Shown piece by piece: positions 24,963 through 36,523 of a stretch of DNA of 56,310 nt. Both the position numbers and the translations under genes were made by a program. The notes under the pieces are model-generated. The model saw nothing but the letters and a program-made list of their open reading frames with translations, made no database searches and was not told the origin of the DNA. The DNA is from a virus. Each line of letters opens with the position of its first letter. The stretch's first letter is position 1. The stretch lies in IMG/VR virus record IMGVR_UViG_3300024983_000001, positions 200,745 through 257,054 of that record; one strand, 5' to 3'.

Positions 24963-25853
24963 TTATGCGAGCGGAACGAGGTTAATGATACCACCAAGAG
25001 TGAAGGTTAAATCAGCTAAAGTAGCATCCGGTACTGCTGGAGCAACGATAGATATCTTGTCGTTGATAGTGCAATTAGCATAACCAGTGAAGTACCCAAC
25101 GGTGCTGCCCGGATCAAAAGTAATTGTACCAAATTCGCCGTTGTTTTGTTGTACACTGAATATAGTTGTTGCGGTTGCTGCAACTTCTGCAATTGCAGCG
25201 GAACCATCGACTGAAAAATCGAATATGCTATTGCGCCCAATCACAAAACGACACAATTCCGCAGAGGAGGCAGGAACACCCGTTGTAGCAGCAAACAAAT
25301 CATACAATTCGTCTTGTATCGGTGGTGTAGGTAACAATGGGGTCCAAGCGCCGCCAGTCCAGTAGTTAAATTGGGGGATGGAAGTATCAAACCACACTTG
25401 GCCGATTGTGGGAACATCTGGTGGGGTTGCACTCGCAAAGTGCTCCATGATATGAATCATGTTTTCTAGCAGATTTTCGCCATAGTTTAGTGTCCCTTTG
25501 CCGTTGAGTGCCAATGATGTATTTTGGTGCGTTTGGCCAGGTCCATTAACAGTTTCGGGTTGGATAAAAAACGGTGCAATTGCTGTATCAGTAAAATTAA
25601 TTTCGTATATAGCAGATACCAAATCGGTAGCTGTGAACGCCAATGACATTGTTTCGTTGAGGACAATATCCGTGTTTGGACCATTAACTGTGGACGAAAC
25701 TACAGTCCACAACCCATCCTGTGCAATTGAAGGTACTGCTACGTTGCCATTATACAGCAAGAATTTAATTCCTGTGTATAAAGGTGTTGTATAATCACCA
25801 AGAACCGATATCGTATTCGAGGGGATATTAATCGAAATTATGTTAAGCTTCAT
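24963..25853 (-). CDS. virion structural protein (fibre/baseplate-like)
   Basis: TSLALNGKG..NYGE..LEN..H..EHFA...PTIGQVWFD domain shared with neighbours. Confidence 0.7.
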   Translation of the reverse strand: MKLNIISINIPSNTISVLGDYTTPLYTGIKFLLYNGNVAVPSIAQDGLWTVVSSTVNGPNTDIVLNETMSLAFTATDLVSAIYEINFTDTAIAPFFIQPETVNGPGQTHQNTSLALNGKGTLNYGENLLENMIHIMEHFASATPPDVPTIGQVWFDTSIPQFNYWTGGAWTPLLPTPPIQDELYDLFAATTGVPASSAELCRFVIGRNSIFDFSVDGSAAIAEVAATATTIFSVQQNNGEFGTITFDPGSTVGYFTGYANCTINDKISIVAPAVPDATLADLTFTLGGIINLVPLA

Positions 25854-25856
25854 TGG

Positions 25857-27545
25857 TTAACTCCCAACCACTAAAAGTTCTATCTTTGCCCCTGCCGTTG
25901 GAATGTTGTTGGCAGTAAATGTAATTTGTGTTGCACTGTCTTCCGTGTAGTCCTCGGCCGCACCTTCCATATTTTTTAGACCATTAACAAAAACCCATAG
26001 CCTATTGGTGCCAACTGGATACGACATCGGGATTGTTGACAGATCATATATTGCCGCACCTGTTGCCGTTATTAGAGCACGTGTTACAGCGGTTTTATTG
26101 TCCACATACTGTTTGGTAGCAGCTTGCAACGCAGTTGTTGGGTCTGAGTCAAGTGTTAATGTACCGCCAGTTAAAACAGTCACGTTGCCTGTAAATTCGG
26201 CATTGTCTTTATCAGCTTTGTGTAGATCAATTGCAGTGATTGCTTCTTGAACAGGAATATCGGTACTTTGCCCATACAAATCCGTGAGCATGGTTGTGTT
26301 GGGGGCAGCAAGAGTGGTGTAAATTACGTCCGAAGCAATGTGCTGGTGCGTAAATGGTGCAATACCAGTGATGTTGATGATACCACCTACGGTAGTGTGC
26401 AACGCTAATACACCAGTCGAAGCATTCAATAAGCCCGAATCAACAACACCATCTGCACCAGCAGCGATCAATAGGTTATCTACGTATTGTTTTGTAACAG
26501 CATCCAACGGACTAACAGGATTGCCCGATAACGTTAAGATGCCCAGCATTGTATCACCGGCGCGAGACACTTTATTAGGAATTTCTGCGGCAGCAACTTG
26601 CAACGCATCAAGTTGTGTTTGAATCGCACTTGTTACACCAACAAGATAATTAACTTCTGTTGAAGTCAGAGCTGGATCTAAACCATCTAACAATGTAGAC
26701 TGTGCAGCAGTTACGTGGACTGTTGTATCTGTGGCGTGAGCGGCTAAGGTGTTATCGGAATATTGTTTAGTAACGGCGCCAAGTGATGCAACAGGATCAG
26801 CACTCAATATCAACAAACCTGTCATTGTATCACCAGTAATACTCACAGATGTGTTGTCAACATATTGTTTGGTGGCTGCTTCGAGTGCTGTTGTTGGATC
26901 TGCTTCTAATACAAGAGGTCCTGTTAAAGTGCCGCCTGACAACGGTAAATAACCATCGGTAACTTTAATCCAATCAAGGGCGACGATATTACCGTCAAAA
27001 GTGCCAACGGGTACGGTTTCGCTTGTAGGAATATTAATGGCTGTTTCTCCAGCTGCCACAACCTGCACACTCTGAATGTGATAAACTTTGTTATTGCCGG
27101 TTGAGTTTGTTACAGCAAACGAATCAATGTTTAACAAGTAATTGTAAGCATCGTTTGTGAGAGTATCTTGTATAAAAAAGCGTTTTAATAACTGATCACC
27201 ACCAATAATGTTATACGTGTTGGTTGTTTTAAACACTCGCATTTCATTCACTGAAGTATCAAACCATGTTTGACCAATAGTTGGATTAACAGGTGATACG
27301 GGGCCCGCAAAGTTTTCTAACAAATACAGAATATTATTTTGAAAACGCTCACCATAATTTGGAACACCCTTTCCGTATATCAACAGGGCGGTGCTTGAAT
27401 TTATCGAGTTGTACTGACCACCATTGAGAGCAGGATTTGTAGGAATGGCAGGACCATCAGTGTGGTACGACTGAACAACAATCGTTTCCTTACCAGGAAC
27501 GACTGTTGAATCGGATGCAAATGTTAAATTATATGTCGTGCTCAT
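25857..27545 (-). CDS. tail fibre-like structural protein
   Basis: Shared N-terminal GKG..NYGE..LENFA..GQ.WFD domain; four DP..AL.AATKQYVD repeats; HQH motif. Confidence 0.75.
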   Translation of the reverse strand: MSTTYNLTFASDSTVVPGKETIVVQSYHTDGPAIPTNPALNGGQYNSINSSTALLIYGKGVPNYGERFQNNILYLLENFAGPVSPVNPTIGQTWFDTSVNEMRVFKTTNTYNIIGGDQLLKRFFIQDTLTNDAYNYLLNIDSFAVTNSTGNNKVYHIQSVQVVAAGETAINIPTSETVPVGTFDGNIVALDWIKVTDGYLPLSGGTLTGPLVLEADPTTALEAATKQYVDNTSVSITGDTMTGLLILSADPVASLGAVTKQYSDNTLAAHATDTTVHVTAAQSTLLDGLDPALTSTEVNYLVGVTSAIQTQLDALQVAAAEIPNKVSRAGDTMLGILTLSGNPVSPLDAVTKQYVDNLLIAAGADGVVDSGLLNASTGVLALHTTVGGIINITGIAPFTHQHIASDVIYTTLAAPNTTMLTDLYGQSTDIPVQEAITAIDLHKADKDNAEFTGNVTVLTGGTLTLDSDPTTALQAATKQYVDNKTAVTRALITATGAAIYDLSTIPMSYPVGTNRLWVFVNGLKNMEGAAEDYTEDSATQITFTANNIPTAGAKIELLVVGS

Positions 27546-28854: not shown

Positions 28855-30144
28855 TTAACTGGGGGTAACAGTCACAGGGGTGATTTCACTATCAAACAAT
28901 AGTTTAAATGCTGCGTTTTGTATAGCAGTGTAATGTAGATATTCGATGGTGTGATTAATACGGAAAACATCAATACCCAAATCTAAAGGACAACTGCTCT
29001 TACACATACGTAATACTCTGCAATCCCCACAGTGCCACTCACGAGACAAATCAACATGTTTAATTTTTATGCCCTTTATGTCTATCAAATTACCACTAAT
29101 GTATGATTCATCCACATTTTGACAAGTTCTTGCATTTCCATATATGTCCAACGATAACAATCGTTTGTCGTCCACACCACAATTGGTTTTGATAATGTGA
29201 GGTGTTTCTGATTGTAATGATTTTGCGTAAGGTAATACACCCATACCAGTATGGAATAAACTATTGGCCAATAATGGACCTGTTTTTGTTGCACCATATA
29301 CACGAAGTTGCTTTAAATGTTCGTTTAAATATCTATTCAATACAGCCGAGTACATTGCCAAATCTTCGCCTGATATAACATGATGTGATGAGTTTTGGGC
29401 GAGCGTCTTATCGTAAACACGTCCTAATTCATAACTCAATGTTACGGGTTGCAGTCCTGTCTTTGTGAAGTAGTCTTGAAAAAAATCATTAATTTTGAAC
29501 AAATCGTAATTTGTTTTACTAATTACAGGATTGAAACTAAACTGCATTTTGGGAAAGTTTTCCTGAATGCCTTTGAGAACCTCAACTTTTTTGTGAAGGA
29601 ATTCTTTACCACGTAATGACTCATGTCCCGGCCCATCATGACTAATACCAAACGCAACTCTGCCTTTAATTTGTTTGAAATATTCGACGTGTTTGGGCAT
29701 TAATGTTGTTCCGTTGGTTGGAATATACCACACGATTTGTTCATTATCGAATGCTTCAATAATTTGCATGATGTCGGGCCAATATAACAACGTTTCACCA
29801 CCCCACAATTCAATACGATTCGTTTTTGACATATCGAGGTGTCGTTTCATATTTTTGATTAGCATTGGTGTAGAACCTTGTGCGGGTCGTTCGTTTGGGT
29901 TACCGATGTCTTTCTGCATACAATAACCACAACTATAATTGCAACCATGCCCTAGGGTGATTTTGATGGTGTACGGATCTTTGGCAACAGACGTTGAACC
30001 AAAATCCTCAATCATTTGTCCTGTTTCGGCGTTAGCCTCGTATAACTTGCTTAATTTGTTGAGGTTATTATCCAACAACGAATTTGTTTCGTTGTTGTAG
30101 TGAAAAAACTCACCTGTACGTTCAATTTTAAATTTGTGTATCAT
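28855..30144 (-). CDS. radical SAM/SPASM maturase
   Basis: CNYSCGYC, WGGET, PTNGT, ISHDGP; C-terminal CGV..D..GN..TC..CGDC..LRMCKSSCP. Confidence 0.9.
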   Translation of the reverse strand: MIHKFKIERTGEFFHYNNETNSLLDNNLNKLSKLYEANAETGQMIEDFGSTSVAKDPYTIKITLGHGCNYSCGYCMQKDIGNPNERPAQGSTPMLIKNMKRHLDMSKTNRIELWGGETLLYWPDIMQIIEAFDNEQIVWYIPTNGTTLMPKHVEYFKQIKGRVAFGISHDGPGHESLRGKEFLHKKVEVLKGIQENFPKMQFSFNPVISKTNYDLFKINDFFQDYFTKTGLQPVTLSYELGRVYDKTLAQNSSHHVISGEDLAMYSAVLNRYLNEHLKQLRVYGATKTGPLLANSLFHTGMGVLPYAKSLQSETPHIIKTNCGVDDKRLLSLDIYGNARTCQNVDESYISGNLIDIKGIKIKHVDLSREWHCGDCRVLRMCKSSCPLDLGIDVFRINHTIEYLHYTAIQNAAFKLLFDSEITPVTVTPS

Positions 30145-31315
30145 TTTTAGTCTTTATTATCGTATCTTTAATTGTTATAAGTGGTATAACATCGCCATTA
30201 TTTTTTGTCGGTAAGAACAATCCAAATTTGTGGTCTATCCATCCCTGTTGCACAAAAGCATTGTATAATGAAGTCCACGGTTTCAGTAAAATTATTGGAA
30301 TAAAGTTAAAGTTCTTGTTGATTTCTACACTAGAAGCGACATAAGAAAAATAATTAAAATACTTATTATCATCACGATTTCGAATTTTCGATATGTATTG
30401 TTTATACATATCAACTTTTGTTAACAGGGAGTTATATACTAACCGTTCCACATTATCAGCTCCATCAGTAACAATATCATAAAATGGTCGTGAATTAATT
30501 GCAATGGCCTGTGATATCGTATGAAATACAGAGGTGTACTGTAAATGGACAACCTCGCCTAATATTTGATAAGCGTCTGAGTCTTCTGAGTAGTAAGTAA
30601 ATTGTTGATAGTCAGCCTGTTCCAATTTCCACTTGTTATTACGGTCTTGGGTAATGTCATCATGAATACAAACGTGTATGTTGTGACTGTGTGCCCAATC
30701 AATCAATTTAATTACAGCATCCTGTTTTTCACCATCATCAGTGCAAAAAATTATTTTTAATTTTAATAATGGCGTCTTGGAGTGCATAATTTCTAATTTA
30801 GCAACCAGATCGTCGGCAAGCTGGCCACTTTTCTTAGCCAAAAAGATATCACTGAACGATATTTCATATATCGATGAAAAATTCATTTCGTTCATAATGA
30901 TGTCATATTGTTGCAAAAATGCATTATCAGTCATCGCTGTTGAACAGAAGTGGTGGCTATTACGTTTATAAAAATCAAATAAATGTGGATGTTTGCGTTT
31001 TAACCAGAATAAATCATCCATCGTAGATACAATAGTGAAATGTTTGAAGAACTTTAAGATCTGTTCTTCTGTTTCGGGTGGAATGAATGGTGGGACCATC
31101 ACACCAAATTCTTCGTCAGTTGGCCAGTCCTTTTGGACGTAACACATCTTACAACCAGCTTTACACATGTATCGTTTTGTAGTTGAAAACACGAGTTCAT
31201 TAGTTACGTTACGTAATGCATCGTACCCCAAAAAGTGATCTTTAAAAAAGTCGGGATCTTCGGGTAAATCGGGTGTATCGTGTTCTGTATATTCGTTAAT
31301 CATATTCCAATCCAA
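30128..31315 (-). CDS. divergent radical SAM-like protein
   Basis: CKAGCKMC (CxxxCxxC) near the N-terminus, MTDN, EISFSD; no clear GGEP or SPASM motif. Confidence 0.6.
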   Translation of the reverse strand: MDWNMINEYTEHDTPDLPEDPDFFKDHFLGYDALRNVTNELVFSTTKRYMCKAGCKMCYVQKDWPTDEEFGVMVPPFIPPETEEQILKFFKHFTIVSTMDDLFWLKRKHPHLFDFYKRNSHHFCSTAMTDNAFLQQYDIIMNEMNFSSIYEISFSDIFLAKKSGQLADDLVAKLEIMHSKTPLLKLKIIFCTDDGEKQDAVIKLIDWAHSHNIHVCIHDDITQDRNNKWKLEQADYQQFTYYSEDSDAYQILGEVVHLQYTSVFHTISQAIAINSRPFYDIVTDGADNVERLVYNSLLTKVDMYKQYISKIRNRDDNKYFNYFSYVASSVEINKNFNFIPIILLKPWTSLYNAFVQQGWIDHKFGLFLPTKNNGDVIPLITIKDTIIKTKNDTQI

Positions 31316-32388
31316 TGCATTAAAGTTGGTTTCTGCCTCAACTTTTGCGAGTGCTTGATAGCTATATTTAACATTTGATAAAATGTTCTACAGTTACCCT
31401 GTGGTGTTTTTTCAAATTCTTTATACAAAAACTTTAAACCGCATTGGTCACGGGACTCACAATCAACACATATCAGTGGGATAAGTGGCGTTTCTTGGTC
31501 AGGATTATCACGTACAAGCTTGATTGGGATAATTGTTTGTTTTTTCCAGGTACCAACAACTGTATCATACATCTTGTATTCAAGAAAATCGTATTCAGGA
31601 TAGATATAACCATCCGGTGATAGAATTATTTGTTTGTGATTTTCAAAATAATGTTTGTCAAAGTCGTGCTCTTGTCCATCGATCAGTACCGTCATACCCA
31701 TTACATACAACATTTCAATAAATTTTGTGAAAGCATTGAAGAAAGCTTTGAGATCTATTTCATCAACAATTACGCGAAATTTGTCCTTGCCGCGGATATG
31801 ACGGAGAGGAATGATATTAATTCTTTTGATGTTATTTTTGGCGCAAACGTCTGTGATACTTTTAATAGTATCTAGGCTGAAAGCGTTTCGTTTGTGAATA
31901 GGCACCACGAACTGAAACTGAATGTTGTTTACCCCAGCAGACTGAAGAGCTTGTATCGTGGCTGCGATATCAAATTCCGTTCTATTTTCGCCCTGAAACA
32001 GAAAATCATAACTAATACTAACAAATAATCGCTCTTTCCATTTTTTCAAAAACCACTCATTTCCAACAATAAGACTTCCATTCGTTTGTATATAAAACGG
32101 AAAATTACTATCGGGAAACATTTCATCTATTTTATCCAAAATGTTATCCATCAGCTGCACATAAACAAAAGGTTCACCGCCGTGAAAATTTAGCATACTA
32201 AGAGGGTAATTGCCGTCGTCAGTCTTCATCAAGCTGATGAAGTTGATAATATCTTCGATATCATCGGTGTGCATTCGTTGTCCACCGATTGTGTCTTTAA
32301 TATAATCACGATCACAATAAGAACACTCGAAGTTACAAACGTTACCCAAGTAGATACTTAGGTACTTTGCGCCAGTTGTGGTAATCAT
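31300..32388 (-). CDS. radical SAM protein with partial SPASM domain
   Basis: CNFECSYC, FHGGEPF, IQTNGS, SISYD; C-terminal CVDC..RDQC..C. Confidence 0.9.
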   Translation of the reverse strand: MITTTGAKYLSIYLGNVCNFECSYCDRDYIKDTIGGQRMHTDDIEDIINFISLMKTDDGNYPLSMLNFHGGEPFVYVQLMDNILDKIDEMFPDSNFPFYIQTNGSLIVGNEWFLKKWKERLFVSISYDFLFQGENRTEFDIAATIQALQSAGVNNIQFQFVVPIHKRNAFSLDTIKSITDVCAKNNIKRINIIPLRHIRGKDKFRVIVDEIDLKAFFNAFTKFIEMLYVMGMTVLIDGQEHDFDKHYFENHKQIILSPDGYIYPEYDFLEYKMYDTVVGTWKKQTIIPIKLVRDNPDQETPLIPLICVDCESRDQCGLKFLYKEFEKTPQGNCRTFYQMLNIAIKHSQKLRQKPTLMHWIGI

Positions 32389-34085
32389 AGTTGAACCAGT
32401 TTCTTTGTTTTTTGTAATATATCGCCCTTCATGTTTAAAATAATCATGTGCGCAAGGGCAAAGTAAAATGCGCTTCTCTCAACTGTTAATGTGTCTGTAT
32501 CTTGTACAGATGAATCGGATGGTATATTGTTGTGGTTGAGCAATTGGACATAAAAATCACGAATAGATAATTCAGGGCCTGTTATTGTAGGCATGTAGTT
32601 GCAGGCACACGGTAGCTGCACTGTGCCTTGTTTAATAAGGGACATAAAGTGACCTAATATGATTTCATGTTTTGGAAAATTGATAAGATCGGCATCAATT
32701 TCACCAACAGCCAAGTGGTGGCCAGTAATTTTTTTATACATTAAATGCGTGGCCATTTTTCTATACAATAGTTCGGGGTCCATTGTCTGTGCCGCTGAAA
32801 CAATATCCATGTATTTTTCTTTAAACACCTTTTTTGAGTTATCGTTCTGTAAATCTATAAACAATGTCACGATTTGTTGACACATACTATCGGGTCTAAA
32901 CATTTGTTTGTGCCCGGTGCTTAGATTTCCAGCAGGACATTGATAACAGAATCCTTTAAGGTTGCATGTCTTGCATTGTTCTTCCTCTTCGAACATCTTG
33001 TCGTACGTAGCCTGAAATGTTTCGTAGCGATCGGTATACAAATTATCATTCAATATGTTACCCAATACAGTTTGTTTTAATGCACTCTTTTGATTGGTGA
33101 AGAAATAACACCCTGCAAAATCGCCAGAAGCATCAACAGCTATCATGTCAGAACCGACCATACAATTGCTGTTTTTCTTGGTCCCCACTCCTTCAGAAAA
33201 TTGAATATCAAATCCAGGCATTTCTGTAATGAGCCACAAAATGGTTGCATGTAATGCGTCCCATTCTACGGCCGTCCACTTGATGTTACCTGTACCAGCA
33301 CTCATTGTAAGAGGGTGAATAACCATTACACGTAAACCTTGATCATAAAGTCTTGTTGCAAAGTCTTTTAGATATGGTGCCGTTTCGCGTGATATGGTGC
33401 ACCGCACACTAATCATCTTGCTGTTTTTGTGGAAGGAAGGAATTTTACCAACACACGAAATAATATGGTCAATGTCATCTTGTGTTACTTCACGGTGGTC
33501 AACATCTTTGTTGTCTGTATCTAAGCTGATGGACATGTTCACGAAATCGTTTGCAAAGTATTCGGCAATAAAGTCGTCAGTCAGTAATGTGCCGTTAGTA
33601 ATCATACTAATTCGTACCGATTGAGATTTTTCTTGTATTTCTTCCTTGTGGGTTTTAATAAAGTCGGTAATCAACCCTTTGTGGATGAGAGGTTCCCCGC
33701 CAAAAAATTGAAACAACTTGCCGTCCATATCGTTTGCGTTGTACAGAAAATCGTACATTTTCTTTAGGGAATCAACTGTAAATCGACCATAATCGGTATT
33801 GTGTTGCTCGTAGCAGTACGAACATGCTAGGTTACATGCGTTGGTGAGAATGATGTTGAGGTGTTTTAAGTCTTCGAAACGTTCTTTGTGGGCGGCAATT
33901 GATTCCACTGTTTCTGCATCACTCGGTAGTACCGAAATGAGTTTATTTTTCTTGGTGCCTTTAGAGGTTTCGTGAAAAGTGGTGACGACCTGCATGCCGT
34001 CTGGGGTATTCACAATTGGTTCGAGTTTGAGTTTTGCAAATTGCTCGCGGCTAACGAATTTTATAGTACTAACTGATTCGGACAT
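32385..34085 (-). CDS. radical SAM/SPASM maturase with C-terminal extension
   Basis: CNLACSYC, FFGGEPL, ITNGTLL, SISLD; full SPASM CMVG..GDFAGC..CKTC..FCYQCP..C. Confidence 0.92.
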   Translation of the reverse strand: MSESVSTIKFVSREQFAKLKLEPIVNTPDGMQVVTTFHETSKGTKKNKLISVLPSDAETVESIAAHKERFEDLKHLNIILTNACNLACSYCYEQHNTDYGRFTVDSLKKMYDFLYNANDMDGKLFQFFGGEPLIHKGLITDFIKTHKEEIQEKSQSVRISMITNGTLLTDDFIAEYFANDFVNMSISLDTDNKDVDHREVTQDDIDHIISCVGKIPSFHKNSKMISVRCTISRETAPYLKDFATRLYDQGLRVMVIHPLTMSAGTGNIKWTAVEWDALHATILWLITEMPGFDIQFSEGVGTKKNSNCMVGSDMIAVDASGDFAGCYFFTNQKSALKQTVLGNILNDNLYTDRYETFQATYDKMFEEEEQCKTCNLKGFCYQCPAGNLSTGHKQMFRPDSMCQQIVTLFIDLQNDNSKKVFKEKYMDIVSAAQTMDPELLYRKMATHLMYKKITGHHLAVGEIDADLINFPKHEIILGHFMSLIKQGTVQLPCACNYMPTITGPELSIRDFYVQLLNHNNIPSDSSVQDTDTLTVERSAFYFALAHMIILNMKGDILQKTKKLVQL

Positions 34086-34133
34086 TATATGCCTCTTTCT
34101 TTATTATGTGGTATGGTTATATATGGTACAACT

Positions 34134-35096
34134 TTAAGCTATTTTAAAGACTGAATAACAGTACTCCAATGATTCTGTTGTTGTGACCACATCCAGAAAT
34201 AATCCTGCTGGTATATTCACCTTCAAGTATCCTACTGTGGTGTTATCGTCAAATGTAGCAGTAATGTGTCCACCAGAAAGCGAATTAACCCAAAGGTTTG
34301 ATTGTACGTTGGCCATAATAGCGGAGGTGTCAACGTGGCTACATTTTAAAAGATTTATTGGACTATCAAACAAATCCAACGTAAATGATGACCCTTTAAC
34401 ATAAATGGCATTGTTGGGTAAAGAAACAACATTTGAGGAGAATTTGGGTGTGATGATGTTGTCTTTGATATTGCCGTCGTGGTCTGTAATCAACCTAACC
34501 TCAAAATTATCGTTCGATACATCCAACCCCCCACCAATTTTCAACAGTCTTGAGTCTGTAATTAAATAATAAACGGGCAAATTTTTGAGTTTTGCAAATC
34601 CGAAAAAAGCCACTGTTGGTATGAAGGATGGGTGGTTAGAGGTAAGTTCCTCCTTAGTGGCGGCGTTTATAAAAGTGTTTGATGTTCTATCCTTAACAAT
34701 AGTAATTGCTTTTACTAAGGCATCGTTATCTGATGCATCGTTGGCTAGTGGCACACCATAGACGAGCTCGCCATATGTGTCAGCATACGAGCACAGTGCA
34801 TCAAAATCAAGTGGACTAAAAAACGATGGATTGGTATTGGGTTGAAACATGTTGTTTGCGTAGTGTGATATTGCTACACAGTCGGCCATGGCCGACGATT
34901 GGTTGTTACGGACCAATCTAAATGTGTTATCAGCTTTGTTGAAAAAACCAAGATTTATATCAGTTGGTTTAGCTAATTCGTCAAGTCGTTGGAGCGAGTG
35001 TTGTGGTTGTTCAAAATCGTTGTTGATAAATTCACAAAAGTCAGCGAATAAATTGGGGTTATAGTTACCCTCTTTTATAAAAATAACTCGTTTCAT
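34134..35096 (-). CDS. hypothetical protein of the radical SAM operon
   Basis: 320-aa ORF between the Cys-rich peptide and the first radical SAM gene. Confidence 0.75.
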   Translation of the reverse strand: MKRVIFIKEGNYNPNLFADFCEFINNDFEQPQHSLQRLDELAKPTDINLGFFNKADNTFRLVRNNQSSAMADCVAISHYANNMFQPNTNPSFFSPLDFDALCSYADTYGELVYGVPLANDASDNDALVKAITIVKDRTSNTFINAATKEELTSNHPSFIPTVAFFGFAKLKNLPVYYLITDSRLLKIGGGLDVSNDNFEVRLITDHDGNIKDNIITPKFSSNVVSLPNNAIYVKGSSFTLDLFDSPINLLKCSHVDTSAIMANVQSNLWVNSLSGGHITATFDDNTTVGYLKVNIPAGLFLDVVTTTESLEYCYSVFKIA

Positions 35097-35111
35097 TGAG
35101 GTGTTGGGCTC

Positions 35112-35324
35112 TTATAAAATGCCTCTGCCACAAGCACAGTTACAGTTACAGTTACATGCGGTGTTGTAATCATCATAGAAAATATGAGTGTGATTGACCA
35201 ACTCATCCAAAATGTTTAACATTTGCTGGTATGTGGTGGTATCAACAGCAGCACCCTGTGCAACAGCTGGTGCATCGGGTTGCACAGCTGTTACTGTGCT
35301 CAAGTCTTCGGTAGTAGTTGCCAT
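35112..35324 (-). CDS. Cys-rich putative precursor/substrate peptide (…HTH…TACNCNCNCACGRGIL)
   Basis: 70-aa ORF with AGGA RBS; five Cys in alternating CxCxCxCxC at the C-terminus; upstream of four radical SAM genes. Confidence 0.8.
   Translation of the reverse strand: MATTTEDLSTVTAVQPDAPAVAQGAAVDTTTYQQMLNILDELVNHTHIFYDDYNTACNCNCNCACGRGIL
35139..35156 (-). repeat. (TGTAAC)3 in-frame hexamer repeat encoding Cys-Asn x3
   Basis: GTTACA x3 on the plus strand. Confidence 0.85.
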
Positions 35325-35345
35325 ATTAAGTTCCTGTTATTAAAA

Positions 35346-35723
35346 TTAGGATATCACATCATTGATAGAGTGTGTGTGAACTCTAATACTATTTATTGCC
35401 GTAATTAATGCATTAACATCTGCTGCTGTTACAGCATCACCAGTGATTTTTGATAATGCCGTCGGTGTTTTTGCAGATACAACAGCCGAATTAGTAACGG
35501 TTTGTGTTATGCCACTGTACAAACCAAACCCCACAAACGAATAGTCAGCGGTACTGTGATAGTGCACAATCCAATCGTTATAAAGAGTTGCAAAATTATT
35601 AAAATCGTCTTTGCTTATTGGCAACCCAGCCGCGATAGCAGTCCGCATGTTGCTGATAGTAGTCGTCATAGCGGATGGATTGTATCCAATTGGACCGGAT
35701 GTTGTTTGTGTTGTTTGAGCCAT
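35346..35723 (-). CDS. small protein with two helix-HxH modules (putative virion component)
   Basis: GGAG RBS before ATG 35723; GLPI..FN..WIVHYH and GDAV..VN..IRVHTH repeats. Confidence 0.72.
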   Translation of the reverse strand: MAQTTQTTSGPIGYNPSAMTTTISNMRTAIAAGLPISKDDFNNFATLYNDWIVHYHSTADYSFVGFGLYSGITQTVTNSAVVSAKTPTALSKITGDAVTAADVNALITAINSIRVHTHSINDVIS

Positions 35724-35763
35724 ACAAATCTCCAAATAATCATCACATCCTTATGTGATGTGT

Positions 35764-35771
35764 TATTTATA
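35764..35771 (-). promoter_or_regulatory. T4-type late promoter heading the peptide/radical SAM operon
   Basis: TATTTATA on plus = TATAAATA on minus, about 40 nt upstream of ATG 35723. Confidence 0.65.
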
Positions 35772-35794: not shown

Positions 35795-36523
35795 TTATAA
35801 GTTCAATTCCTTCACATAAGTAGTCATTTTTTTAACGACTTTGGGATTTAGCTCGAACATAGACGACCAGTATGTTGGTCGAATTAATTGTTCGAACATA
35901 TTGCGCTCTTCTTCACTCACTTGTTCCAACATGGCTCCAAATTTTACACTGCGTAATAACATCCAAGGTGATAATTTACGTTCGCGTATAAGTTCTAATA
36001 CTTCCACTGGATGTACAATATTAAAAACTTCGCTTATGTCGCAATCAGCTGCATCAGCCAACTTTGAAAGTGTTTTCATGGTTATGTTTGCTTGTTTGGT
36101 AGGAGTAGTGTTTCTATCGAGATACTCCAAATACGAAGCGTACATTTGATCGTGCACCCACAAAGATGGCTGCACCGCTTTTTCTCGCATCATCTGTATA
36201 AAGAGCTCCACATCTACAATTTTAACCCGTTTAACAAATTTAGCAAATTTGATAAATGCATTATAGTGCCGCGATTTAAGAAAACTTGTGGGCTGTGATA
36301 CGGATTTTTTCTGAAGAGCCATCCATTTTTGGTAGTATAACCATCCAGCTTGACCTATAGGAGTTTTGAACTCTTCATCTTTAATCATTTCCTTGCAACG
36401 GTGTGCAATAAACCTATTTTCGTGTTTAAACGTCTGCTCACAATACTTGCATTCGTATGTGGGTTTAAAAATGTGCTGGTTGATAACCTGCTTTTTTTGT
36501 GCTGCTGTCATTGTTTCGTTCAT
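35795..36523 (-). CDS. hypothetical protein with N-terminal zinc finger
   Basis: YECKYCEQTF..E..F..HRC; coupled to the clamp loader small subunit. Confidence 0.7.
   Translation of the reverse strand: MNETMTAAQKKQVINQHIFKPTYECKYCEQTFKHENRFIAHRCKEMIKDEEFKTPIGQAGWLYYQKWMALQKKSVSQPTSFLKSRHYNAFIKFAKFVKRVKIVDVELFIQMMREKAVQPSLWVHDQMYASYLEYLDRNTTPTKQANITMKTLSKLADAADCDISEVFNIVHPVEVLELIRERKLSPWMLLRSVKFGAMLEQVSEEERNMFEQLIRPTYWSSMFELNPKVVKKMTTYVKELNL

Follow-up and report, generated by a model that had tools for sequence, protein, structure and literature searches.

Positions 28,855–35,771 of a 56,310-nucleotide (nt) stretch of viral DNA (IMG/VR virus record IMGVR_UViG_3300024983_000001, positions 200,745–257,054; the whole stretch is called the window here) carry a minus-strand gene cassette. 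The cassette encodes a 70-amino acid (aa) peptide with a cysteine-rich tail, two partner proteins of 125 and 320 aa, and four proteins with a CX3CX2C motif (566, 362, 395, and 429 aa), and it runs directly into three fibre-type genes. We assign a probability of about 0.5 to the reading that this is a dedicated radical S-adenosylmethionine (SAM) system that cross-links the cysteine tail of a small fibre-associated subunit. A preliminary description made from the sequence alone had proposed a multi-enzyme peptide-maturation pathway whose product is a virion appendage or packaged effector. The multi-enzyme and fibre-associated interpretation is supported by the evidence below, from which we infer the chemistry and the location in the virion. 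The record itself is 257 kb long, with its completeness estimated at 78%, and the window makes up its final 56 kb.

Conservation of the peptide and its linkage to the enzymes

Sequence conservation confirms the 70-aa peptide as a real gene, far beyond chance. A search of 5.8 billion proteins returned 44 metagenomic relatives of 65–94 aa, and an alignment of 35 sequences (A6) has 17 invariant columns. The N-terminal ~30 residues vary freely across relatives, and from residue 31 the sequence is nearly fixed, reading T-[FY]-Q-x-M-L-x-[IV]-L-x-x-L-x-x-H-T-H-I-F-Y-D-D-Y-x-T-A-(C-x)4-5-R-G-x-x, with H45, H47, F49, Y50, D51, D52, Y53, C57–C65, R67, and G68 invariant. Cysteine occupies every second residue of the tail, an arrangement fixed across all loci, and the intervening residues are only N, Q, E, D, or A; the number of cysteines ranges from four to six among loci. 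The C-terminus of the window's peptide reads ...TACNCNCNCACGRGIL, and an AGGA box lies 8 nt ahead of its ATG. By tblastn, an unannotated open reading frame (ORF) for a 65-aa peptide was located between ORF074 and ORF075 of Ralstonia phages RP12 and RP31 (in RP12 at NC_041911 82888-83085, equivalent to L001:7787-7984). In one relative, the peptide-type C-terminus forms the end of a 210-aa protein in the canonical gene context. No NCBIfam family matched the 70-aa peptide at E ≤ 0.1.

To assess linkage, the proteins of the window were compared by tblastn with RP12 and with 30 loci from metagenomes or IMG/VR. The peptide gene is followed by 566-, 362-, 395-, and 429-type genes in 29 of these 31 loci, the exceptions being two copies of one variant, and the same arrangement occurs in loci L035, L036, L038, and L040. 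The preliminary description had raised the possibility that homologous clusters lack the cysteine-rich peptide; this is not so, as the enzymes directly follow the peptide in 34 of 37 peptide loci. Every sufficiently long locus (27 of 27) contains all four enzymes in one order, and in L004 the enzyme block is inverted with its internal order kept. No gene but that of the peptide adjoins the block of enzymes at every cassette locus. Most loci also have the 320-aa gene, either before or after the peptide, and the 125-aa gene is nearly always upstream; both move or drop out in L025/L026. Cassette proteins are 42–50% identical in the phiKZ-related phage RP12. Because one pairing of peptide and four enzymes is fixed across phages with 25–60% protein identity, the comparison indicates that the peptide and the four enzymes form a functional unit.

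The source DNA derives from bioreactor and wastewater metagenomes, and all ten sequencing runs listed as containing it are DNA runs. A 346-kb contig also encodes the window's cassette proteins, and megablast of the cassette region against 50,697 phage records found no near-identical DNA. The full cassette is present in two entries classed as bacterial genomes, on scaffold8.1 of Ewingella americana E4 (L036, 253 kb), which may be a jumbo phage carried in culture, and on a 25.6-kb scaffold of a Bdellovibrio metagenome-assembled genome (L035). At L023:8603-9607, a fifth SPASM-type radical SAM gene, together with a 242-aa gene, is inserted between the 395- and 429-type genes.

A peptide sub-family with the tail ...CNCNCNCTCC[IV]RGM[VI]W has an extra cysteine and a C-terminal tryptophan. 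Its members at L005:10001-10210, L006:3245-3454, and L037:6550-6771 have no radical SAM gene and no 125-aa partner within 6–10 kb of the peptide, their neighbours being a GIY-YIG gene or genes without assigned function. A metagenomic peptide of the CTCC[IV]RGMVW variant (P0166, 206 aa) appears to be interrupted within its cysteine tail by an insert of ~137 aa. This insert is mini-intein-like, starting with C-F-E-E-E-T-K-V-I-T-D-K-G and ending in ...V-T-M-N before a cysteine, and it has no match in Pfam. If it is an intein, the cysteine tail of the 70-aa protein would be marked as a critical site.

Motifs, folds, and nearest relatives of the four enzymes

Membership in PF04055 was defined as presence of the CX3CX2C motif together with a Pfam score above the 29.5-bit cut-off, and conservation was evaluated in alignments of 22–27 distinct homologues for each enzyme, taken from 31 related loci. 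The 566-, 429-, and 362-aa enzymes score 64.7, 43.5, and 32.5 bits, respectively, all above the cut-off. CX3CX2C and GGE are invariant in the 362- and 429-aa families and are found in 26–27 of 27 sequences of the 566-aa family. The 395-aa protein has no Pfam or NCBIfam match, and a locus search with this protein alone gave no matches. Its family has CX3CX2C in 22 of 22 sequences, T-x-D-D in place of GGE, and no auxiliary cysteines. The AlphaFold model of the 395-aa protein (predicted local distance difference test (pLDDT) score of 85) has structural matches only among radical SAM enzymes, with SuiB at Z 11.3 (272 residues aligned, rmsd 5.4), MoaA at Z 11.0, and viperin at Z 10.2. Since this protein lacks GGE and a family match but has CX3CX2C and a predicted radical SAM fold, the cassette is described, on the basis of motifs and modelling, as three canonical radical SAM enzymes and one divergent radical-SAM-fold protein. 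The preliminary description had called all four proteins radical SAM enzymes, which stands by family membership for the 566-, 362-, and 429-aa enzymes and by motif and fold only for the 395-aa protein.

The SPASM domain (PF13186/TIGR04085) was recognized by the seven-cysteine pattern C-x(9-15)-G-x4-C ... C-x2-C-x5-C-x3-C ... C, which corresponds to two auxiliary clusters. The 566-aa enzyme scores 21.6 bits against PF13186, for which the cut-off is 21.5 bits. Its family keeps C308, C326, C371, C374, C380, C383, and C402 in 27 of 27 sequences, and in all has eight further conserved cysteines, equal to the full SPASM set and one upstream cysteine. In the 429-aa family, C322 and C341 (C-x18-C) and CX2CX5CX3C are invariant, and the seventh SPASM cysteine is present in 18 of 22 sequences, being replaced by His398 in the window's phage; the 429-aa enzyme has no match to the SPASM hidden Markov model. 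C307, C310, C316, and C333 of the 362-aa family are invariant (22 of 22), and their pattern, CX2CX5C...C, is a partial SPASM motif that would be enough for one auxiliary cluster. The SPASM-type cysteine motifs earlier read in three of the proteins are thus full sets (7–8 cysteines) in the 566- and 429-aa enzymes and only CX2CX5C...C in the 362-aa enzyme. In the model searches that the preliminary description had proposed, PF04055 recognizes three of the four proteins and PF13186 the 566-aa enzyme.

Among named maturases, the 566-aa enzyme matches PapB (NF047865) with 134 bits over model positions 2–322 of 330 (cut-off 340 bits), QhpD (TIGR03906) with 96 bits (cut-off 453 bits), a nif11 maturase model with 91.5 bits, and the SCIFF maturase (TIGR03974) with 87.5 bits (cut-off 425 bits). 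The anaerobic sulfatase-maturating enzyme (anSME) model (TIGR03942, cut-off 349 bits) gives 60.5, 33.9, and 26.4 bits for three of the enzymes, and the MoaA, QueE, and NrdG models score below the 60.5 bits of anSME for the enzymes where they are listed. Over 400 clusters (90% identity) represent the 566-aa enzyme, and among solved structures its nearest relative is that of the thioether synthase CteB (PDB 5WGG, E 7e-16). The 429- and 362-aa family profiles match TigE (8VPO) first (E 1e-15 for the 429-aa profile), then SkfB, CteB, viperin-like enzymes, and YydG/EpeE. TigE is a cyclopropyl synthase of a ribosomally made, post-translationally modified peptide (RiPP) pathway (PMC10878394). By these scores, none of the four enzymes belongs to a named family, and as a group they sit with peptide-modifying SPASM enzymes and not with QueE, NrdG, or anSME, the non-peptide families named in the preliminary description as the contrary outcome; the 566-aa enzyme has 134 bits to PapB as compared with 60.5 bits to anSME.

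Partner proteins, fibre neighbourhood, and gene layout

The 125-aa family has two H-x-H-x-x-x-D motifs, each following a helix, in which H54, H56, D60, H116, H118, and D122 are invariant. A profile–profile alignment by hhalign pairs residues 13–51 of the peptide with residues 83–122 of the 125-aa protein, that is, with its second module (probability 93.8%, E 1.8e-7), and by this alignment the "leader" of the peptide is a third copy of the module. The leader thus looks more like a docking module common to the 125-aa protein than like a throw-away leader. At 50% identity, the 125-aa family comprises 274 representatives in an exhaustive profile search, mostly of 120–150 aa. Longer relatives additionally contain a Gly_rich_2 insert (E 6e-13), beta-sandwich domains at the C-terminus, or a C-terminal Hint domain, which exceeds the Pfam cut-off in P0303 and P0310. 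The C-terminal Hint (autoprocessing) domain follows the second HxH module at L019:8623-9981 and in P0303, P0310, and P0252; these fusions give hints of self-cleavage, or of ligation of the C-terminus of the 125-aa relative. P0270, from a contig of only 1.3 kb, has three modules in one chain, followed by another domain and no cysteine tail.

Docking of the 125-aa protein and the peptide was also modelled by complex prediction, which gave a score of 0.59 as compared with 0.00 for the best control, with partner pLDDT of at least 58 and runs agreeing on at least 49% of contacts. Of 80 solved complexes, 58 attain the mark applied, as do 2 of 110 mismatched pairs, and at values of 0.60 or less it takes in only seven of the 80 solved complexes together with both mismatches. 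The prediction amounts to weak support, and we do not count it as evidence. The 320-aa protein has no family match in Pfam, NCBIfam, or PHROG-type annotation, and an atlas search gave weak tail-fibre leads only, under 0.9. In its model (pLDDT 81.6), residues 209–320 alone have structural matches (Foldseek, VIA), to generic immunoglobulin (Ig)-like domains at Z 6–7, and the N-terminal 200 residues have none. A member of its family was called in 21 of the first 32 sources.

The position of the cassette next to fibre genes holds in three differently arranged phage contexts, and the neighbourhood noted in the preliminary description is kept in other phages. In the closest relatives of the window's phage, one fibre gene precedes the 125-aa gene and another follows the last enzyme. 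The cassette of RP12 comes after two YomR-like virion genes. In a third group of loci there are, upstream, a giant phrog_358/DUF4815 protein, a phrog_473 virion protein, an IMC-type-ended tail fibre, and a 130-aa gene, and, downstream, DUF3050, an LtfC-like fibre-assembly protein, and further structural proteins. DUF3050 (E 3e-77), which has a heme-oxygenase-like di-iron fold, was called in 13 of the loci in the first set and is also present in L035. Other accessory genes encode a rubrerythrin-like protein (four loci), a B12 radical SAM protein (three loci), and the fifth SPASM enzyme (one locus). Examples of accessory genes are L014:15289-16044, L008:8284-9072, and L004:2882-4738 (DUF3050, rubrerythrin/ferritin-like, B12-binding radical SAM). 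No DUF3050, rubrerythrin-like, B12 radical SAM, or fifth SPASM gene was found in the window, and a search for DUF3050 in the rest of the 257-kb record gave no match, as did the control of that search.

All seven minus-strand genes of the preliminary description lie where it had placed them, with the lengths given there and with the frames of the four CX3CX2C proteins overlapping by 4, 16, and 17 nt; the fibre genes it had noted downstream are likewise present, three in number.

Table 1. Features of the cassette and its flanks, in window coordinates
Feature	Position	Strand	Remarks
TATAAATA box	35764..35771	-	Candidate promoter; matches T4-type late-promoter consensus; 41 nt before the ATG of the 125-aa gene
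125-aa protein (phrog_31780)	35346..35723	-	Two helix + H-x-H-x-x-x-D modules
70-aa peptide	35112..35324	-	Presumed substrate; variable N-terminus, one helix-HxH module, FYDDY...CNCNCNCAC-GRGIL tail
320-aa conserved accessory protein	34134..35096	-	Ig-like beta sandwich as its C-terminal third
Radical SAM/SPASM enzyme, 566 aa (lead maturase)	32385..34085	-	PF04055 and SPASM matches
Radical SAM enzyme, 362 aa	31300..32388	-	PF04055 match; 4-Cys auxiliary motif CX2CX5C...C
Divergent radical-SAM-fold protein, 395 aa (phrog_36229)	30128..31315	-	CX3CX2C and predicted fold
Radical SAM/SPASM enzyme, 429 aa	28855..30144	-	PF04055 match and Cys motifs
Three tail-fibre-type genes, 408, 562, and 296 aa	27560-28786, 25857-27545, 24963-25853	-	Tail-fibre PHROGs; directly downstream

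The 125-aa gene would encode 129 aa if started at an upstream TTG; homologues begin at the same place as the ATG at 35723. The TATAAATA box had been taken for a late promoter in the preliminary description. The box is present, and eight such sites occur in the window (1052, 1792, 3251, 14678, 22560, 22590, 35764, and 55142) as compared with 4.2 expected, a count that is not significant by itself, since 5 of 100 shuffles reach eight. All eight sites lie 19–43 nt ahead of an ORF start or, in one case, span it, and the motif also stands ahead of fibre and fibre-assembly genes in related loci. For these reasons the candidate element is plausible, but unproven, as a real T4-type late promoter of the phage. 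A hairpin between the box and the start codon was not significant (z −1.9). Farther upstream, at 35795-36523 on the same strand, is a gene for a 242-aa protein (phrog_11058) with a zinc-finger-like start, C-x2-C...H-x3-C. In the closest relatives of the window (L002, L003, L017–L019, L023, and L038), a conserved phrog_11058 gene stands immediately upstream of the fibre/cassette block.

Interpretation and relation to known systems

In the reading that we favour, the small peptide protein, which is 65–79 aa long (210 aa in one relative), would be made together with its 125-aa partner and the 320-aa accessory protein. The front half of the peptide (helix and H-x-H-x-x-x-D) would dock with the 125-aa protein, bringing together three modules with six histidines and three aspartates, comparable to the histidine-metal sites of phage fibres and spikes. 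The invariant cysteine tail is the obvious candidate for the substrate of the four radical-SAM-fold enzymes. Of these, the 566-aa enzyme, with its full SPASM set, most likely forms cysteine thioether cross-links, as do PapB, QhpD, and CteB, and the 362-, 395-, and 429-aa enzymes would contribute additional cross-links or tailoring. The most likely first step is thioether formation, since the likeness of the 566-aa enzyme to PapB, QhpD, and CteB extends along its whole length and the residues between the cysteines fall in known acceptor classes. The acceptors of known cysteine thioether enzymes are Asp/Glu for PapB and QhpD, and Asn for NxxcB. The product would be retained by the phage, as a component of the fibre or tail that is covalently stapled and probably binds metal, and would not be an exported bacteriocin. 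A more specific picture, which we put forward tentatively, is a 2 + 1 pseudo-trimer of the 125-aa protein and the peptide with a His6 metal site, whose cysteine-ladder tail is thioether-cross-linked into a tip by the four enzymes, such that these phages would staple their own host-recognition apparatus.

Several observations weigh against the stapled-subunit reading. All matches to named maturase families score far under the curated cut-offs, so that neither family membership nor chemistry is assigned, and for three of the four enzymes epimerization, carbon–carbon cross-links, or cysteine oxidation are equally possible. The CNCNCNCTCC-variant peptides have no radical SAM genes nearby, and for this reason the peptide may function unmodified, or the enzymes may lie elsewhere in those genomes. 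The number of cysteines in the peptide varies from four to six, yet the number of enzymes is constant at four. C-x-C repeats are also a hallmark of metallothioneins. No RiPP recognition element (RRE) was seen in the Pfam and NCBIfam scans, with no dedicated RRE search having been made; the N-terminal 66 residues of the 566-aa enzyme fall outside the alignment to the RRE of CteB, and the 320-aa model has no winged-helix match. Lastly, band-based mass spectrometry of the RP31 virion listed none of ORF68-76, although the method was insensitive, listing 32 proteins and missing the neighbouring YomR-like fibre proteins as well.

These observations bear differently on the alternatives. The same substrate might undergo another chemistry, the cysteine/asparagine tail or the FYDDY/HxH segment being modified without thioethers, for instance by alternating epimerization of the PoyD/YydG/EpeE type, by carbon–carbon or cyclophane links on Phe, Tyr, and His, or by oxidation of cysteine to formylglycine. 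A leaning toward the thioether family is seen only in the 566-aa enzyme; the 429- and 362-aa enzymes match the carbon–carbon bond former TigE first and also YydG/EpeE, the 395-aa model also matches EpeE (Z about 9), the invariant F49, Y50, D51, D52, and Y53 adjoin the cysteine tail, and the O2-dependent di-iron (DUF3050, rubrerythrin-like) and B12 radical SAM genes of relatives point to multi-step tailoring. We nevertheless consider a thioether-free chemistry rather unlikely, as the best full-length matches of the lead enzyme are cysteine-thioether maturases and the cysteines themselves are the invariant feature of the tail. More improbable still is a diffusible RiPP, matured and perhaps shortened by a host protease, that lysis would release and that would target rival bacteria or phages, or the host itself. 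A short cysteine-rich ORF beside SPASM enzymes does resemble radical SAM RiPP clusters, SCIFF-type clusters also often lack a protease and a transporter, and the RP31 virion data without these proteins would fit such a product. However, the N-terminal "leader" is hypervariable and the module ahead of the core shares homology with the 125-aa neighbour, the cassette sits within fibre or virion modules in three differently arranged contexts, and the tail ends a 210-aa protein in one relative. Pfam and NCBIfam scans of the cassette proteins found no peptidase, transporter, immunity gene, or PqqD-like RRE, in keeping with the preliminary description, which had recognized no transporter or peptidase in the operon. 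A retained fibre-associated subunit is more likely than an exported RiPP because its module is shared with the 125-aa protein, it is positioned in a fibre module, and no protease or transporter was found.

It is also quite improbable that the peptide is not a substrate at all, being instead structural or a carrier of metal or Fe-S in the manner of a metallothionein, with the enzymes acting, for instance, on a small molecule, on the fibres, or on the 125- or 320-aa protein. Metal ligands of the classic kind include C-x-C repeats and HxH motifs, the 125-aa protein bears its invariant HxHxxxD motif twice, and both the CNCNCNCTCC sub-family without adjacent enzymes and the variable number of cysteines beside a constant number of enzymes are as expected for such a role. 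What speaks for the peptide as substrate is that it alone adjoins the enzyme block in every cassette locus, while the 320- and 125-aa genes move or drop out; that three-module or cysteine-less relatives of the 125-aa protein are common, with 274 representatives, may also count here. Very improbable, finally, is a peptide-derived cofactor like pyrroloquinoline quinone or mycofactocin, in which the core would be excised into a small redox or metal-binding molecule. Several SPASM enzymes with oxygenase-type accessory genes recall the PqqE and MftC pathways, and the Y-D-D-Y core is invariant. Yet the scans revealed no PqqD/RRE, peptidase, or PqqB/C-like gene, the gene context is one of fibres and virions and not of metabolism, and the PqqE and MftC models are not among the best matches listed.

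Radical SAM genes have been noted among the structural genes of other phages: eight, called "highly unusual", in Aeromonas phage 332-Vera (PMC12390700), others in Burkholderia phage S13 (PMC11898562), and ORF76-79 in RP12 and RP31 (PMC5468394). These papers list the radical SAM genes only and name no function or substrate peptide. Among the papers covered by our search on phage RiPPs, ranthipeptides, and radical SAM enzymes with tail fibres, none was found to describe the cassette, in line with the statement in the preliminary description that no characterized phage pathway is of this type. The cassette is widespread, occurring in at least three differently arranged phage contexts, always with the same four enzymes and peptide core. 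Peptide chemistry of the radical SAM/SPASM kind has been described for bacterial natural products and for a few subunits of enzymes, and it is not known from virus particles. A stapled fibre part, if true, would constitute a new principle of virion maturation, the first that depends on radical SAM enzymes, and a new use of RiPP chemistry; it would also provide a compact four-enzyme toolkit for protein cross-linking. A released peptide, if true, would be a phage-encoded RiPP class. The system is testable, since the cultured phages RP12 and RP31 carry the cassette.

Three known systems offer comparisons. PapB/PapA (freyrasin), CteB/SCIFF, and NxxcB likewise have a short gene for a cysteine-rich substrate beside a radical SAM/SPASM enzyme; the phage lead enzyme can be aligned along its entire length to PapB (134 bits) and to CteB (E 7e-16), and the amide and acid residues between the phage cysteines could be acceptors. 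Unlike these ranthipeptide and sactipeptide systems, the phage cassette has four enzymes instead of one, scores far below the cut-offs, C-x-C spacing in place of CX3D or NxxC, a peptide whose front half is homologous to a neighbouring protein, a fibre-module setting, and no detected RRE. Histidine-metal sites in phage fibres and spikes, such as the tip of T4 gp37 and the apex of P2 gpV, contain six histidines from three H-x-H motifs around one metal ion. The cassette similarly has three invariant H-x-H motifs across two adjacent small proteins in a fibre locus. In the phage proteins, however, H-x-H follows a helix and an invariant aspartate lies four residues on, metal binding is predicted only, and the copies are on two chains (2 + 1) and not on three identical chains. 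In the third system, the SPASM enzyme QhpD forms Cys-Asp/Glu thioethers in QhpC, a small subunit of quinohemoprotein amine dehydrogenase. The phage context differs in having no dehydrogenase, peptidase, or flavoprotein genes, and the products are unrelated. As QhpC is retained in a complex and not exported, it is the closest functional precedent and the best functional analogy for a stapled subunit of a phage fibre.

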